64,000 bases of DNA from Pseudomonadota bacterium (GCA_041178425.1 JBEGVH010000009.1:192001-256000); one strand, 5' to 3'. Shown: positions 15,614 through 53,491, counted from the stretch's first letter. Made by a program: numbers and translations. The notes: generated from the sequence alone by a model not told the origin.

Positions 15614-15859
15614 GGCATTGAGTCCTTTCCCTGAAACTAACCGTTAGTAACAGGATAGAAACAAACCTTAGACATCCACAATCCAATTGATAATTATTAT
15701 CATTTATTGGAAGGCAAATAAAACTCAACCGAAAGGGAATTGAGAATGAGCCGCCGTCGTAAACTAGGAACTGACCTTTATGTAAACTGAAAATATTTAT
15801 TGTGGCGGGTGGCTTCAGATTTGCTTGAAATACCCGTATATAAGGGACGTTGGAGTCGT

Positions 15860-16684
15860 ATGAAACTTTGGATAAAGCTATTACATCTGCTAATATTGTT
15901 ATTGTTCGCTGGTCCTGCTCCCTCTCACGCAAACGTTTGCCGCCTATGGCTCAACAAAATGCTCAACACAGATCAATACAAGAATCAAAAACTTGAGGAA
16001 CTTCGTGATGTTAGCAGCGAAATAGATCCTATTGCCACATTTTATCAACGAATCAACAAACTCACCGATCCCTCCACTGGACTTGATTACGCCCTCCCGG
16101 GCTCCCGCGAAAACAAAACTTTGATTTTTAAAGATAAAACGCTCTTGGCCTTTCATGTCTTGCGAAAAGACAATTTTTGCTCAGAACATCTAGCGATCTT
16201 TAAAGGCCGGGTTGTTGTTTTGAAGATCTTTGATCACCCCAACCAATGGGAAGGCCACGTCCATGGTTTCGAAAGTCGATTCTACACCGAAATCGATTCC
16301 ATTAATTTCCTAAAGAATGAGAAAAAAATGAGGGTTGTTGATATTATTGACCATTCGTTAAAAGACAAGATTCTAATCAAAGAATTTATCCCTGGCCTTC
16401 CTTTATCGCGCACTCGCAGAGACACGAGGAAAATTGTGCTCAATGAATCCAACATTGTTGGGTTGGCTCTGGATTATTTTATCAGTTCATCTGATTACAA
16501 AAAGATTGATGACCTCTATCGATCGGTGCACGACCGAGTCGATTTGATAAATCGAAGTGATTACACCTTTAAGAAATGGGCCCATCAGAGGCATCTGATC
16601 GCCTATATTGATCTCACAATGCCTCAAACAACTCTCTATTGGAATGGGAACTGGTATATCAACTCCCCTTACTCACTTTATTAA
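15860..16684 (+). CDS. Secreted protein with minimal protein-kinase-like fold
   Basis: Signal peptide ending PSHA; VVVLKIF (beta3 Lys), TEIDS (helix C Glu), LIKEFIPG (hinge), YIDL (catalytic-loop-like); RBS GGAG. Confidence 0.6.
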   Translation: MKLWIKLLHLLILLLFAGPAPSHANVCRLWLNKMLNTDQYKNQKLEELRDVSSEIDPIATFYQRINKLTDPSTGLDYALPGSRENKTLIFKDKTLLAFHVLRKDNFCSEHLAIFKGRVVVLKIFDHPNQWEGHVHGFESRFYTEIDSINFLKNEKKMRVVDIIDHSLKDKILIKEFIPGLPLSRTRRDTRKIVLNESNIVGLALDYFISSSDYKKIDDLYRSVHDRVDLINRSDYTFKKWAHQRHLIAYIDLTMPQTTLYWNGNWYINSPYSLY

Positions 16685-33737: not shown

Positions 33738-34883
33738 TTACGCGCCGCCTGGTACGGGCACTGGAGACAATCCAGGTACCCATTGAAAATCGCGCTCGGT
33801 CTCACGCTTTTGTTCTTTTTGTGGTTTTTTGCCTGCCGGTCGTTTTTGATAGGCACGGTAAAAGAACTGCCAAACATACTCGCCAGCCTCTTTATCGAAG
33901 TAAACTATATGATCAAGGTAAAGCCGACGATTGAGGTTGCCAGCATTACTCACTTCTCGTGCCATTCTCTCATCGAAACGGTCTTTCAGGTAAAAGAAGT
34001 TGCCGAAGGTCTTATCTAAAAAACTACCTCCTATTTCGGTGGTCGCCACTTGGCGAGCATAATCGACCGACGCAGGATCGTTAGACATTAACATTTGATG
34101 AAACTCAACAGGAACCATGATTGAAGATCCAGAAACAAAGATCTCGTTTTCGGACCGTTGATTATTATTTAGAAACATTTTTAGTTTATAAAAATTAAGA
34201 TCGAACTTTTCTTTATTGTAATCAAGCATCGGTTTCCAAAAGTCAGCTACGAGATTAGCAGCAAAGATCATCTGAAAAAAAATACTCCTATTGGTTTCAG
34301 TTCCTAAGTGAGAAAAATACTCAATAGCGTCATAACTAATGTCGATAAATGATGTGAGCATAAATAAGCCTAAAGCCTGACTCACAACCTGCGTCTTTTT
34401 CGACCAGGTTTCATTATACACTTTGCGATAGAGCGGCTCTAGCTCTTTACCCTTGACCTCTAAATAATCCATAGCTTTCTTGATGTCGTCTCCACGAATT
34501 TCATAAGAAATAATTTGTTGGTCGAGTTTAGTGCTTGTGAGATGCTCTTCGAGGCCATTGAGTCGATCGATGATTTGATTGGCTTTCTTTTTATCGATAT
34601 TCGCTAATGGGCCTGAATAGGCTAAATCTGAAAAACTTATTCCATCATTGGAACGGTCGCCAATTTCTTTTTGAATTCGATATTTGATATCTCGAAGGGC
34701 GGGCAACGGTGAATTTTTAACAGAGTGGTTTTTAAAATCAGAGTTCAGCATGACCTCACAGGTGAGGAGCTTAGACTTTCTGCCAAAAAGAGAGGGCGTG
34801 GCCCAAATGGTCGAATTGAAGAAAATTCCGCCGACTAAAGCTAGAGCGATTCCAGTTTTATGTAAAAATGCATAGGTCTTCAT
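33738..34883 (-). CDS. Hypothetical secreted protein
   Basis: Signal peptide; single Cys in TCEVML; two moderately hydrophobic internal helices; C-terminal PVPVP. Confidence 0.75.
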   Translation of the reverse strand: MKTYAFLHKTGIALALVGGIFFNSTIWATPSLFGRKSKLLTCEVMLNSDFKNHSVKNSPLPALRDIKYRIQKEIGDRSNDGISFSDLAYSGPLANIDKKKANQIIDRLNGLEEHLTSTKLDQQIISYEIRGDDIKKAMDYLEVKGKELEPLYRKVYNETWSKKTQVVSQALGLFMLTSFIDISYDAIEYFSHLGTETNRSIFFQMIFAANLVADFWKPMLDYNKEKFDLNFYKLKMFLNNNQRSENEIFVSGSSIMVPVEFHQMLMSNDPASVDYARQVATTEIGGSFLDKTFGNFFYLKDRFDERMAREVSNAGNLNRRLYLDHIVYFDKEAGEYVWQFFYRAYQKRPAGKKPQKEQKRETERDFQWVPGLSPVPVPGGA

Positions 34884-49061: not shown

Positions 49062-50177
49062 CTAAATAGGTTTTTCCTGCATAATTTTTTGTCTTAGTGC
49101 AGCCAATCGCTTCGATGTCTCTCTCTTCATGGCCTCGAGCCTTTCTAGTCGCATCTGCTGTTCTTCGATCATTCTATTGACATGGTTGAGCACGAAGGCA
49201 CGCTCTTCAGCTTTTGAAGGTAAATCTGTCTCTCCGAGTGAAAAACTAAATTCATACATATTATCGGTGAGACTGACTTTGAGTTTTTTTGCAGCACTTT
49301 CAGTGATGCGAATCACTCCGGCGCCACCCTTGATAATTTTAACGGCGTGATCAAGCCTGCGGGCCGCAAACGATAACATACCTATTGAGTGCTGAAGACT
49401 ATAAGAGACACCATTGACGAACTGCTTTTGCTCGACGGTGCTGAGTTCATTTAATTGCGGAGACAAACTTGCTTTGTAGGCGTATTTAGCGTCTTGAAAA
49501 TACGTGCCGATTTCTTGAAAACTGAGGTAAAGCTCATAGGGATGAGTGGTAGGGATATCTCTGTTAGTCATCACCACGAGCCCCTCAAAGAGGGACGGAT
49601 CGCCTGTTCTTAATTTATGGGTGTAGCTCGCATGCCGAATCTCATGGTAAAGAAAAACATTGGGCTCGCCCGAGATCGCCACCAAATGAGGAATTCCAAT
49701 TTCGTTGGTGGCCGACTGAAAATAAGCGGTGCTACCGTCCATGAGTTGGCGTGGATTATAGGTAAGACTCACTCCCATGGTTTTGTGAAGCTTGGCCGCC
49801 ATTCGATTGAGAACTGAGCCTTGATCATCGGGAACAATTACGAGCTTCGAGCTCTTGGTCAAAACAAGATAACGCTTTTGCACGTCTTCGAGCACCGTGA
49901 CACCATTTTTTTCAAAGGCCCGCCGTGCGTTTTCTAATTGTTCTTCTGGTTTCAATTTTACAAATAATCGATACTCTTCAGACTGAAGCAAACGATATTG
50001 ACTTTCAAAGAGCCGAAACAACTGAGGATTGTCACGCAGCAAGACCTCAGCTTCCAACATCACTGGCGTAGGAATAAGCGTCGAATCTCGCAGTGACATT
50101 TGACACTGATCGGGCCGAGATTGGGAATAACCCCTCTGCAAGAAAAATAAAACTACACAAATCACAAAAAACTTCAT
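49062..50177 (-). CDS. Secreted HExxH (zincin-like) protein
   Basis: Signal peptide MKFFVICVVLFF; LYHEIRH plus downstream FQE; ATGA overlap with the upstream gene. Confidence 0.7.
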   Translation of the reverse strand: MKFFVICVVLFFLQRGYSQSRPDQCQMSLRDSTLIPTPVMLEAEVLLRDNPQLFRLFESQYRLLQSEEYRLFVKLKPEEQLENARRAFEKNGVTVLEDVQKRYLVLTKSSKLVIVPDDQGSVLNRMAAKLHKTMGVSLTYNPRQLMDGSTAYFQSATNEIGIPHLVAISGEPNVFLYHEIRHASYTHKLRTGDPSLFEGLVVMTNRDIPTTHPYELYLSFQEIGTYFQDAKYAYKASLSPQLNELSTVEQKQFVNGVSYSLQHSIGMLSFAARRLDHAVKIIKGGAGVIRITESAAKKLKVSLTDNMYEFSFSLGETDLPSKAEERAFVLNHVNRMIEEQQMRLERLEAMKRETSKRLAALRQKIMQEKPI

Positions 50178-53100
50178 ATAGCCCTCTTGTTGAGAGATTT
50201 GCTGCATGCACCTTTACTCGATGGCCGATTTGAGGCCCGAGACTCTTTTTCTAACTGCTCTTCCATTTCAGTGATGATTTTTTGATAATTACGCCGAATC
50301 TCATAGTTCGCATCATCTATCATAAACTGACCAGGATCGCGCGGAATCAACCCTTTCTTGAATGCCCTATAGAGACGACGATAAACAATAAGTCTTTGCT
50401 CGACATTGTTTGATTTTAAAAGGGATAGCATTCGTCCATCCAAAGGTTCGCTTATCGCTACCCGTTTTTCTATAGTATCATTCACGATCGAATTTTCGGC
50501 GAGACTAAGAATTTGCAAGAGATCTAAGACCGCAGGTCGCCCCCAAAAGCGGTTTGTTTTTTTAGGATTAGGATCAAGAAAATCGTCAAACCTAGAAATC
50601 GCTTCAAAAGAGGTCTTTTCGAGTGGGAGCTCTTTTTCGCGAGTTGTATGATCCCAAATAAACGATGAAAGCTCTTGCCATTTGTGTTGTTCGAGAAGAG
50701 CGATCAATTGAGCTAAATTTAGATCTTCAGATGTTTTTTTGGCTACGGTCGATCTTGCCGATTTACCCCAATTAACCGAATTAAAAACGCTCGAAAACCA
50801 ATTCTTCTTTTCAACCACCTCAGGTCTAAAGAGCTCCCTATCTGAATCGGCTAGGGTTCGCCCCTGCAAAAGGTCAGAGGAGGAAAGAGATAGTTTAGGT
50901 CGAAACACAACCATGACCTTCAAGAGAGTGATAGCATCCATCTTTTTTGTGCTAAAAAACTCACTGACTTCATTGGCAGTCCAGTCCTCATGGGCTATAT
51001 AGCGCTTCACCAACTGAAGGTTTGCTAGTTTATTGGCTCGCTCAAGAAACGTTAGCAACAACTCTTTATATTGCCTTGTAGTCATAAGCTTTCGAAACGC
51101 ATCGAACCCATCACCCAACAAAAAAAAGGTCGAGTTGGAGAAACGATTCAATTCTCTGTTGGAATCGATTTTCCACTGTTCTGGCCAATAACCATTTTTT
51201 TTCGCTAAAGCTAGTTTTTCATCGAAGTTCAAACTCTCAAGCAAAGGGATTGTCATCTCGAAAGTTAAAAGGGGCTTCAGAATTTCCTTCTCTTCATTCG
51301 TCAATTTTTTAAAGTTTTCTGGAAGAGCAAAAAACGCCGCCGACCTCGAATCATGAACGCCAAACCTAATTCGATTGATTCGAATTTTTTCTGCTAAAGG
51401 TATATTCTCGTTACAAGATCTCATGATTTCGGCATCGCTAAGCTGGCGATGGGCACGTAACAAACTTACGGCAAAGGAGGATTCCCCTGGCCATCGCTCT
51501 AAGACCTTTAACAAATCTGGCCATTGAGGCAAGGCCTCAAGTCGTTCCATCGAGTGAGCCTCTAGCAAACCCTCCATCAGAGCAATGAAGGCCTTGGATT
51601 TTCTCTGAGTCTCGCTGAGCACTTTTTTTGGACTAGGGCTTAAAAACTCGTTGAGTCGTTTTAGATAGAGCAACGGATTAAGTTCAGACCTCCGAGCCGA
51701 GGCCATCGATTCTTCACTGTATTCGACGAGGAATCGATCGATGAGGGCCAGCAAAGACTCCGGGTTGGTTGTCGACAGGGAGGTGACAAGATTTCGAATG
51801 GATCGACTGTCAATTTCTCCGTGCAACCAATAATTCAAAAGAATATGGGATAATTCATAATTGTTTGCATCAACACGAACAGCTTCAAGATTTTGGACCA
51901 ACGGATAATGGTTAATAATGATATCAACATTGTAATAATTAACGAGGGCATCCATCAACTCCCACTCGTCCGAAGAGAGCCCCTCGTTGGCTGAGAATTT
52001 TGAGTTTTGTAACTTATCGAAGTCGACTATTCTAAGATGGGAAATGTCTTCAGCCAGTCTCAGCGACAAAATATAACCTAGGTAATCGTTGTTTTTCTTT
52101 TTAGCGTAACCATCAGCGACGGAGATCCTGCCCGAAGTGTAAAGACCTCGGCCATGAACGGCGACCCCTTGTTCCGATGAACTTAAATAAAATCCATTTC
52201 TTAAAATTGACGTGACAGCACCGAGATCATCCACCCCATGATAAAGGCGGTGATTTTGATCGGTGTGTTTCTTTTTGAACTGATCCACAGTCATCAAATA
52301 TTCAGCGGGCAGTTCCTTTTTAGGCCTTTGCCACAATGGCCTGATAGGAACAAAGATTTTCAGTGGGCGTCCCATGTTGTTGGAGACCTCCAGAAATTTT
52401 TGCACTACGGGGTCATCAGGTTGCCGAAATAAGCGATTATTCCCAGCACTCAATCGGGCGTTGAGTGCAATTTTCACAAGTTGTTTTTGGATTGCGGCTC
52501 TTTGATAGTCTTCAACATCGGCTAAGGGATAGGACAAGTCTTTGAGCAATACGTCGCTCGTTTTTAGATTCAAAAACGGAATCTCTACCATTGGTCGCAA
52601 CCCACGCAAGGCCTGCTTGAGATAATTATCAGTTCCGCTCTCTTCAAATTCTGGTGCCAAGTAATCGTATTCGCCACGTATAAAGGAATCGATGGTGTCT
52701 GGTGCCCTTGAGGGGTTTATAAATTCACCCATCGTCAAATCAAAGGCTAGCATATCGAGAGTGCTCCCCCCCTGCGAAATGGCACGGTGGAGTTGTGACT
52801 GAACTTCGTGTACTTCACCAACGGTCGTCGTTAACCTTTGAAACCACTGGTCTGCCGGCTTCCCTTTCTGCTCATTCTGAAGTGTCTGGGTAAAAATCGA
52901 TTCTACTTGTTCAATAGCTCGATATGAACGATCGGATCGCACATAAAGGTCGAAGTCGCTTCCCACTCCTAAAATCAACGATGAATCAAAAGACGACTGG
53001 GCGAGAATTTTGTTAAAAACCTCATTCGTTTTTACATCGGGATTGTTTCGCCATTCTTGATGAAGTCGATCATAAATAAACCCCAACATAGTTCGCACAA

Positions 53101-53491
53101 TTCCCGGGGCCAATATTAGATGAGCCTCAGGATCAATAGCCTGCAAGCGTTCTTGAGCCAGAGTTAAAAGAGAGATTTTCTTTCCATCTTCGTATTTTAT
53201 AAGCAAATGGGGTATAAGATGCTTAATAACGGCGGTTAATTGACTTTTAACCCGATAAACTTCCGATGCAGGAATTTGCGACGGACCCAGTCTCCGGTAC
53301 TCACGTGCAACAAACAAGTTCGGAAATTCTTTGTGTAGGTCAATTGCTCCACCCAGTTGATTGAGAATCTCATTACGGTCGCCCTTTGCAAAGGAGAGGG
53401 TGGCCGCCCCAACGATGAGCGCCAAAACAAAGAAGGCTATATTTCTGAATCCTCTGAGGACCATGAGCGGGCTCAACATTTTACCTTTCAA
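50174..53491 (-). CDS. Secreted multidomain protein: class II nucleotidyltransferase-like plus PARP-like ADP-ribosyltransferase domains
   Basis: LAPGIVR / SDFDL / STLDMLAFD / LRGLR; LYHG...SILRNGF...GRGLYTS...ADGYA. Confidence 0.7.
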   Translation of the reverse strand: MKGKMLSPLMVLRGFRNIAFFVLALIVGAATLSFAKGDRNEILNQLGGAIDLHKEFPNLFVAREYRRLGPSQIPASEVYRVKSQLTAVIKHLIPHLLIKYEDGKKISLLTLAQERLQAIDPEAHLILAPGIVRTMLGFIYDRLHQEWRNNPDVKTNEVFNKILAQSSFDSSLILGVGSDFDLYVRSDRSYRAIEQVESIFTQTLQNEQKGKPADQWFQRLTTTVGEVHEVQSQLHRAISQGGSTLDMLAFDLTMGEFINPSRAPDTIDSFIRGEYDYLAPEFEESGTDNYLKQALRGLRPMVEIPFLNLKTSDVLLKDLSYPLADVEDYQRAAIQKQLVKIALNARLSAGNNRLFRQPDDPVVQKFLEVSNNMGRPLKIFVPIRPLWQRPKKELPAEYLMTVDQFKKKHTDQNHRLYHGVDDLGAVTSILRNGFYLSSSEQGVAVHGRGLYTSGRISVADGYAKKKNNDYLGYILSLRLAEDISHLRIVDFDKLQNSKFSANEGLSSDEWELMDALVNYYNVDIIINHYPLVQNLEAVRVDANNYELSHILLNYWLHGEIDSRSIRNLVTSLSTTNPESLLALIDRFLVEYSEESMASARRSELNPLLYLKRLNEFLSPSPKKVLSETQRKSKAFIALMEGLLEAHSMERLEALPQWPDLLKVLERWPGESSFAVSLLRAHRQLSDAEIMRSCNENIPLAEKIRINRIRFGVHDSRSAAFFALPENFKKLTNEEKEILKPLLTFEMTIPLLESLNFDEKLALAKKNGYWPEQWKIDSNRELNRFSNSTFFLLGDGFDAFRKLMTTRQYKELLLTFLERANKLANLQLVKRYIAHEDWTANEVSEFFSTKKMDAITLLKVMVVFRPKLSLSSSDLLQGRTLADSDRELFRPEVVEKKNWFSSVFNSVNWGKSARSTVAKKTSEDLNLAQLIALLEQHKWQELSSFIWDHTTREKELPLEKTSFEAISRFDDFLDPNPKKTNRFWGRPAVLDLLQILSLAENSIVNDTIEKRVAISEPLDGRMLSLLKSNNVEQRLIVYRRLYRAFKKGLIPRDPGQFMIDDANYEIRRNYQKIITEMEEQLEKESRASNRPSSKGACSKSLNKRAI

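Follow-up and report, generated by a model that had tools for sequence, protein, structure and literature searches.

What would a protein predicted to be secreted gain from carrying two enzymes whose substrates are found in the cytoplasm? This question is raised by a gene in a window of 64,000 nucleotides from a Pseudomonadota bacterium (GCA_041178425.1, JBEGVH010000009.1:192001-256000), where an open reading frame (ORF) runs from 50174 to 53491 on the minus strand, as do all features of the gene given below. The initial annotation of the sequence had described its product as a secreted fusion of a nucleotidyltransferase (NTase) with a PARP-like ADP-ribosyltransferase (ART) and had proposed a two-warhead predation effector. 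We find that the NTase and the ART form a conserved module of 500 residues, whose halves are co-inherited while the tails behind it are swapped. The module is real and, apparently, undescribed as an effector, and its two families hold some 370 divergent members.

The ORF is open over 1105 codons from a TTG at 53491. The likelier start is the ATG at 53479, which is preceded by an AAGG stretch (judged by eye) and yields 1101 residues; residue numbers throughout are counted from the TTG. The gene is present in a single copy in the 3.06-Mb source genome (G000), with a GC fraction of 0.435 vs 0.443 for the genome, and scans of the locus for promoters and terminators gave nothing better than chance. 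To place it in a family, we searched 1.84 billion representatives of 50% identity clusters and obtained 263 proteins at E ≤0.001, the weak end of which may include matches to the ART only; 224 reach 1e-10. The best 150 of the 263 were examined. The alignment over the module comprises 149 of the 152 stored proteins, two duplicates and one fragment being excluded, and conservation counts below refer to these 149 unless another number is given. Every motif quoted in the initial annotation was recovered in the translation, and the coordinates it gives are right for the DxD at 52949-52957 (D179 at 52955-52957, D181 at 52949-52951) and H418 at 52238-52240.

Residues 45-372 (52376-53359) comprise the head, neck and short body of a class II NTase, the type of CCA-adding enzymes and poly(A) polymerases. 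Foldseek on the model placed CCA-type enzymes on top (probability 0.99, E 0.011), and ranks 1-7 in VIA-align are all class II NTases with Z of 7.2-9.7, the best being 4wby (Z 9.7, root-mean-square deviation (rmsd) 4.0, 200 residues aligned). An hhalign comparison of the module profile with 29 housekeeping PolyA_pol proteins of relatives gave E 3.7e-4 at a probability of 36% (reversed control E 0.38) and paired GGVVR with GGCVRD, QGGSTLDxLAFD with RRDFTINALFYD, so that QGGSTLD falls against RRDFTIN, and EDxxKQTIRGLR with EDxLRILRAIR. The DxD motifs were left unpaired owing to an insertion of about 37 helical residues in motif A. PF01743 gave no match to the query at E up to 1, and the genome-wide search with this family led to three other places only. 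Together, the structure matches, the profile alignment and the conserved catalytic residues bear out the class II fold and motif order that had been read from the sequence.

The catalytic motifs can be followed along the alignment of the family. The first half of motif A, ILAPGIVR (53093-53116), corresponds to SGGVVR in the family, and its P129 in place of G is seen in the query alone among the 149. Between GGxVR and GxGSDxD lies the helical insert of about 37 residues (52976-53092), defined by the family spacing and by helices in the model; it is absent from CCA enzymes, and the R133-D179 spacing has a mode of 47 in the family vs about 10 in the CCA profile. GVGSDFD (52949-52969) then supplies the metal-binding D179 and D181, and the alignment and a strand position in the model point to E226 (52814-52816) as the third catalytic carboxylate. 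Both the insert and E226 had escaped the initial annotation. R133 is kept in 145 proteins, D179 in 147, D181 in 146 (with one E), D246 in 146, R296 in all 149 and R299 in 147, while position 226 is acidic throughout (D in 147, E in 2). QGGSTLD (52754-52774) stands in place of the RRD motif of CCA enzymes, and its two glycines, G241-G242, are invariant. The template motif EDxxR is altered as well: in DNYLKQALRGLR (52595-52630; family EDxxKQxxRxxR), the query has DNYLK, and the family has E in 69, D in 74 and, after two further residues, K in 105, followed by one extra residue. The RRD motif selects the ribose and EDxxR templates the base. With all three metal-binding carboxylates kept and both of these motifs changed, the module is, judging by its sequence, not a CCA-adding enzyme. 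Housekeeping PolyA_pol genes are separate in the source genome, which has three such matches (C21:33271-33630, C34:6166-6540 and C31:3-368, one of them touching a contig end); most relatives have two.

The ART domain occupies residues 411-545 (51857-52261) and is supported by the Pfam PARP profile, VIA-align and the alignment. It carries H418 (kept in 148), Y451 (146), Y462 and N534 (145), and the His and the Tyr lie on strands 1 and 2 of the model. PARP (PF00644) scores 22.5 bits (E 9.3e-5), below the curated cut-off of 26.7, which one divergent member (L022) reaches at 26.7. VIA-align on the model of both domains also gave ART folds for the second half. Modelled by itself, the ART domain has a predicted local distance difference test (pLDDT) of 92.9, and all 50 VIA-align rows listed are ART folds, each a moderate match. 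The best is chain B of the cyanophage A4 pre-ejectosome (9k3a_B; Z 7.8, rmsd 3.4, 123 residues aligned), followed within about 2 Z units by diphtheria-like domains, MbcT, PARPs and Tpt1. Being the best structural match, residues ~1271-1602 of 9k3a chain B themselves appear to bear an ART fold. A sequence search of the PDB returned only weak PARP matches (E 0.02 and 0.006) and no NTase.

The position of the usual catalytic Glu is where this domain departs from PARPs and classical toxins. Y529 occupies that register in the query, and the other residues found there among 145 members are mostly not acidic either (H in 74, Y in 33, I in 12, F and V in 7 each, A in 5 and E in only 4), the register having been read off the pattern of the sequence and the strands of the model rather than a residue-level superposition. 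A catalytic Glu on strand 5, as in H-Y-E enzymes, was not found in the query. In two members, Y451 is changed to N alongside a G at the slot, a paired change that fits a slot lying within the active site. PARPs with L, I or Y at this position are active mono-ARTs, as described in passages from PMC7913519. We agree with the suggestion that this is an ART fold without the usual Glu, with a predicted mono-ART-type site.

Are the two halves one unit? An AlphaFold2 model of residues 38-554, built with 100 sequences, reaches a pLDDT of 90.6 and a predicted template modelling score of 0.92, so the model is confident about how the two domains are placed relative to each other; the fold assignments rely on consistent match lists and conserved residues, since none of the scores is high by itself. 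Of the 149 proteins, 142 have both catalytic sets intact. The NTase test is failed by four (one with true decay, one with DxE, one with DxH and one truncation) and the ART test by three. NTase and ART distances are correlated (rho 0.36; highest of 200 permutations 0.12), and the nearest neighbour of an NTase is within the top three for its ART in 80 of 146 cases, where about 3 are expected. The N352-H418 spacing is confined to 54-90 residues. Among proteins shorter than 600 residues, we found 4 matches in 8000 scored candidates and no stand-alone ART: two stop inside the ART, one stops just before it, and one (P0131) is an NTase with another ending. The description as two warheads was thus right about the two enzyme folds and understated their coupling, given the rigid unit in the model, the co-inheritance and the recurrence of the pairing in a second, barely aligning family.

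The second family was opened from a weak match within the phylum (L023, 414-3461) and comprises 114 proteins (P0155-P0268), of which 106 were aligned and 8 partial matches dropped. Its members carry GGTsRD, SDxD, a third Asp, QG and RxxR, then HGT and GxY, and their Glu slot holds a near-invariant Ala following a YPY motif. Compared by profile with the family of the query, the ART half matches with a probability of 99.3 and the NTase half with 65 (E 6e-5; reversed 0.094). Since two families that barely align share the same pair, in the same order and with the same catalytic residues, the pairing predates their divergence. Second-family sources are mostly Bdellovibrionota, with up to four paralogues per locus-tag prefix; the source genome has no separate member.

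The family is patchily distributed among predators and intracellular symbionts. The 16 titled loci represent five Bdellovibrionota-level taxa, two 'Deltaproteobacteria', one 'bacterium', two Elusimicrobia, two Alphaproteobacteria, two Holosporales, one Ca. Berkiella and one Gammaproteobacterium, with three tandem copies at one locus and two at the Ca. Berkiella locus. Bdellovibrionota are predators, and Holosporales and Berkiella live within protists. The source genome presumably belongs to Bdellovibrionota, judging by the Bdellovibrionota-level labels in its phylum sample. A single-query search found the module in 2 of 60 relatives, and a profile search found it in 19 of 300 phylum genomes; the 281 genomes without a match include all 18 of one well-sampled genus in the same family. 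Scans of viral contigs and, with the query's own peptides, of genome contigs gave 159 and 122 pattern matches, respectively, none of which was confirmed. In a midpoint-rooted FastTree phylogeny (149 tips, 25 labelled), the Berkiella, Holosporales and Alphaproteobacteria members fall in a clade of 53 (support 0.98), apart from 96 proteins that include the query and every tip labelled with its phylum. This occurrence, together with the HEAT or ankyrin tails described below, argues for an effector role. The term predation effector fits the presence of the module in predators, but is too narrow for a non-core gene that also has a separate symbiont clade.

Export is suggested by the N-terminus. Residues 5-35 (53387-53479) form a predicted Sec-type signal peptide by sequence and hydropathy, in which basic residues precede a hydrophobic core and S-F-A at 33-35, with probable cleavage after A35. 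The 19-residue hydropathy reaches 2.15, and each of the ten windows with the highest values in the protein begins within residues 8-19. By a crude hydropathy rule, 110 of 150 homologues and 93 of 106 second-family members also have a hydrophobic N-terminus, in line with the leader proposed initially.

The other end of the protein is far more variable. The private tail (residues 555-1092, 50216-51829) matched no relative in our searches. Homologue tails range from 0 to 1563 residues and are HEAT, ankyrin or unclassified, with HEAT repeats in 6 and ankyrin repeats in 5 of 35 proteins scanned. At the Elusimicrobia loci L027 and L028 (P0043), the module is part of a 2949-residue protein that also has HEAT repeats and an ABC1-like kinase, and the surroundings are runs of large leader-bearing genes. 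Beyond the tail of the query, at 50183-50206, is the C-x3-L motif CSKSLNKR, also overlooked initially, which is a candidate lineage-specific delivery or processing signal. Of 110 leader-bearing members, 47 have a C-x3-hydrophobic motif within their last 25 residues, vs 1 of 110 in a control window, and in the second family the counts are 75 and 0 of 106. On the tree, it is found in 50 of the 96 proteins grouped with the query and in 3 of the 53 of the symbiont clade, kin that are not independent. Among motif-bearing proteins, 18 of 52 and 25 of 75 lack any further Cys between residue 30 and the last 25 residues, so an internal disulfide is not required. Enrichment of the motif across the source genome is weak (41 vs 32 of 702 by regular expression; 11 vs 5 of 702 by score matrix). 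A C-terminal helix of the form C-x-x-L-[LF]-K-x-L is typical of Bdellovibrionota members of both families and is present in other leader-bearing proteins of the source genome (C6:79461-80627, C14:20524-22134, C14:82110-83120 and C21:92773-93738). Our literature search turned up no description of it.

We found no conserved partner or immunity gene across 35 loci with flanks of 1.5-4 kb, the gene downstream of the query included; the exceptions are a few HNH/HTH, ATPase and transporter pairs, named by eye. The module begins beyond residue 150 in only 5 of the 149 and has no recurring adjacent gene, which differs from the classical polymorphic-toxin layout.

How would such a protein work? We give roughly even credence to an accessory, exported effector that acts in the cytoplasm of another cell, with the NTase and the ART working jointly on one target. 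NTases and ARTs need cytoplasmic substrates; together with a leader in most members and no immunity neighbour, this makes action in another cell the simplest account. The Sec leader would take the chain out of the producer's cytoplasm, away from its own nucleoside triphosphates (NTPs) and NAD+, and this removal would make an immunity gene unnecessary. A second, lineage-specific step would deliver the protein into the cytoplasm of prey or host, possibly through the C-terminal Cys helix in Bdellovibrionota and through other signals in symbionts. The variable tail may aim or scaffold the effector, and the 500-residue module would function as a single enzyme with a single target, drawing on NTP, metal and NAD+. 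The fixed pairing, the shared history and the rigid model favour a joint reaction over independent warheads and over the other readings weighed below.

If the reaction is joint, an RNA end has about an even chance of being the target. Untemplated nucleotides would be added to the 3'-OH of a tRNA-like acceptor and ADP-ribose to a terminal phosphate or hydroxyl, blocking translation. This is our first choice because the NTase descends from tRNA-end enzymes and because there are precedents: Men-type NTase toxins extend tRNA acceptor stems (as summarised in 10.64898/2026.10.19.760177), and the non-Glu PARP10/11/15 as well as TRPT1 ADP-ribosylate phosphorylated RNA ends, according to parts of PMC6582358. 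A relay is a serious, if less probable, form of the joint reaction, in which the NTase would extend the adenosine ribose of NAD+ or of transferred ADP-ribose to give a nucleotide-capped ADP-ribose mark. According to PMC7913519, the NTase OAS1 is able to attach a nucleotide to ADP-ribose at its 2'-OH, and PMC10468400 states that ModB transfers NAD-capped RNA. The replacement of RRD by an invariant QGG, moreover, shows that the pocket is remodelled. A protein or small molecule modified twice seems an improbable target of the joint reaction. We also consider a bolder proposal, unlikely as a whole, that the module writes a composite mark: the NTase would extend NAD+ or target-bound ADP-ribose and the ART would attach it, as nucleotide-capped ADP-ribose or by de novo RNAylation, in a form that ordinary ADP-ribose hydrolases may not remove; delivery in Bdellovibrionota would use the undescribed Cys helix, and protist endosymbionts would have adopted the module against eukaryotic hosts.

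Several points weigh against a joint effector acting in another cell. A Sec leader by itself reaches the periplasm only, and the lifestyle of the source organism is deduced from its lineage. CCA enzymes grip tRNA with body and tail domains, and these are short or lacking in the module; its RRD and EDxxR motifs are altered as well. Co-inheritance is expected for any fused neighbours and is no proof of a common target. Two members (L021, 724-2664, and P0070) keep the two-domain frame with the NTase catalytic residues lost, the ART Tyr is lost in P0105 and P0148, and P0131 has the NTase without an ART. All fold scores are moderate (Foldseek E >0.001, Z of 9.7 and 7.8, PARP below its cut-off and no Pfam NTase). 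Lastly, the query has the second-longest branch of the 149 (1.40; median 0.58) and carries substitutions at near-fixed columns, namely the unique G129P, R343L and T420V, the latter two at columns fixed in 134 and 145 of 149. That branch and those substitutions would also fit an active family with a partly or wholly degenerate copy in the source genome, which we regard as very unlikely: the 1101 codons form an uninterrupted frame, and D179, D181, E226, QGG, D246, R296, R299, K340, N344, N352, H418, Y451, Y462 and N534 are all retained.

Other arrangements of the two activities can be weighed against the same data. The two domains could be independent warheads on one carrier, the NTase blocking RNA ends or nucleotidylating a protein and the ART hitting another target or draining NAD+. 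This is unlikely. Both folds are known apart as toxins or anti-defence enzymes, a few members show decay of a single domain, and there are further fusions such as the ABC1-like kinase in P0043; however, independent warheads are usually shuffled, as in polymorphic and polyvalent proteins, whereas the module keeps its order and pairing in 142 of 149 and in the second family, the N352-H418 spacing is held within its narrow range, and the pair folds as one unit. The module could instead be a nucleotide-converting enzyme, with an NADase and an NTase making a soluble ADP-ribose or oligonucleotide derivative for signalling or scavenging in lysed prey or the periplasm. NADase-type ART folds (MbcT 6fkg, Z 6.5; NatT 8qnl, Z 6.0) tie with transferases, the ART acceptor loop is about two residues in 105 of 149, and a small bulky substrate might be accommodated by the invariant GG that replaces RR. 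The large HEAT and ankyrin tails rather suggest binding of a macromolecule, RES-type NADases share only 6-10% identity, and the HG-x-GxY pattern is PARP-like, so that we hold this conversion to be distinctly unlikely.

A role in the producer's own RNA repair is hardly credible. CCA-like end restoration would be combined with KptA/Tpt1-like phosphate clean-up, and the leader would be an anchor or a false call. Tpt1 matches the ART domain with Z 6.0, and RNA repair is a function of CCA-adding enzymes and KptA ARTs alike, as outlined in PMC7824862. The hydrophobic leaders in most homologues of both families speak against this role, as does the neighbourhood, where the 35 loci hold no RNA ligase or other recurrent neighbour and the housekeeping CCA-type genes are separate. 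The second catalytic residue is also different, being His in Tpt1 and Tyr in the module.

Comparison with known systems shows where the module stands. It shares with class II tRNA NTases and bacterial poly(A) polymerase (PF01743; 4wby, 3h37, 3wfo, 1miv, 3aql) the head-neck fold, the motif order, the DxD with a third carboxylate and the LRxxR helix. Unlike them, it has the motif A insert, QGG for RRD, EDxxK(Q) for EDxxR, no flexible loop, an ART in the place of the body and tail, a predicted signal peptide and no Pfam match. With H-Y-x ARTs (PARP10/14/15/16, diphtheria-toxin-like, Tox-ART-PARP/HYD1/HYD2, ART-PolyVal and 9k3a_B), it shares the ART fold, HG(T), GxGxY and the second Tyr, whereas its third position is H, Y or hydrophobic (Ala in the second family), its acceptor loop is almost absent, it has no receptor-binding or translocation domain, and its ART always stands behind an NTase. 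The module would work like a class II NTase joined to an H-Y mono-ART and falls outside CCA-adding enzymes and poly(A) polymerases, H-Y-E toxins, PF00644 and classical polymorphic toxins.

The nearest conflict protein is Gad2, a phage anti-Gabija NTase that is toxic in bacteria, according to 10.1101/2023.05.01.538930; Gad2 is also treated in portions of 10.64898/2026.09.15.751885. We compared the N-domain of Gad2 (L074:764-1966 in phage SPbetaL7 for the whole protein) with the CCA profile and obtained a probability of 80 (E 1.4e-5), which makes it a class II, CCA-like NTase, but one without the motif A insert, QGG or leader. The Gad2 C-domain has a strand-helix-strand pattern and a faint ART likeness (E 0.0037, reversed 0.17; E 0.54 against the second family). 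Gad2 was ruled out as a member of the same family, with a profile-profile E of 0.089 between the NTases (8 Gad2 sequences). In the ESM Atlas, feature matches to the query include a rotifer PARP cluster (0.91, 131 of 256 features) and Gad2 (0.84).

MenT-type toxins, which extend tRNA ends, and T4 ModB, which transfers NAD-RNA, are functional analogies with other folds or partners, compared by description only; among the fold matches listed there is no MenT-type fold, which excludes nothing. Legionella SidE reportedly couples an ART to a second enzyme in one effector, again as a functional analogy with another partner. None of MenT, ModB and SidE pairs a class II NTase with an H-Y ART. NCBIfam, PHROGs and PADLOC gave no match to the query, for which every curated family stays below its cut-off. 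A tblastn search of phages returned nothing beyond short, weak PARP-like fragments, and BFVD had nothing at E ≤0.001, its top rows being matches of single domains to ART-PolyVal or tRNA NTases. One candidate, phrog_23333, turned out to be a phage PARP and is present in 0 of 101 genomes. The view that no characterised protein has this architecture agrees with our literature search, which covered the main texts of openly available papers and found none on an NTase-ART fusion; the architecture supplements of PMC3482391 and PMC9503650 could list one. In the main-text portions of these two papers and of PMC7824862, ART and NTase toxins and RNA-repair enzymes are treated separately and the fusion is not described.

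The gene downstream of the module (49062-50177, minus strand) overlaps its stop codon by ATGA. It encodes a leader, CQMSL and HEIRH (HExxH), and has a paralogue in the source genome (C9:70377-71528, 31% identity); its product is possibly a secreted zinc peptidase. The CQMSL follows just behind the signal peptide and resembles the Cys motif of the module, as do CRLWL in 15800-16684 (plus strand), which is kinase-like by eye, and CEVML in 33738-34883 (minus strand). NCBIfam gave no match for any of these three genes.

To our knowledge, little is understood of how Bdellovibrionota shut down the prey cytoplasm beyond the use of hydrolases. The family described here provides a testable candidate for an enzyme that acts in the cytoplasm and is common to predators and to intracellular symbionts of protists. 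The C-terminal Cys motif offers a lead of its own, towards a predator delivery signal. A CCA-derived NTase fixed to a non-Glu ART in two old families hints at undescribed chemistry and would extend the biology of RNA ends and ADP-ribose; the relay, if true, would be categorically new.

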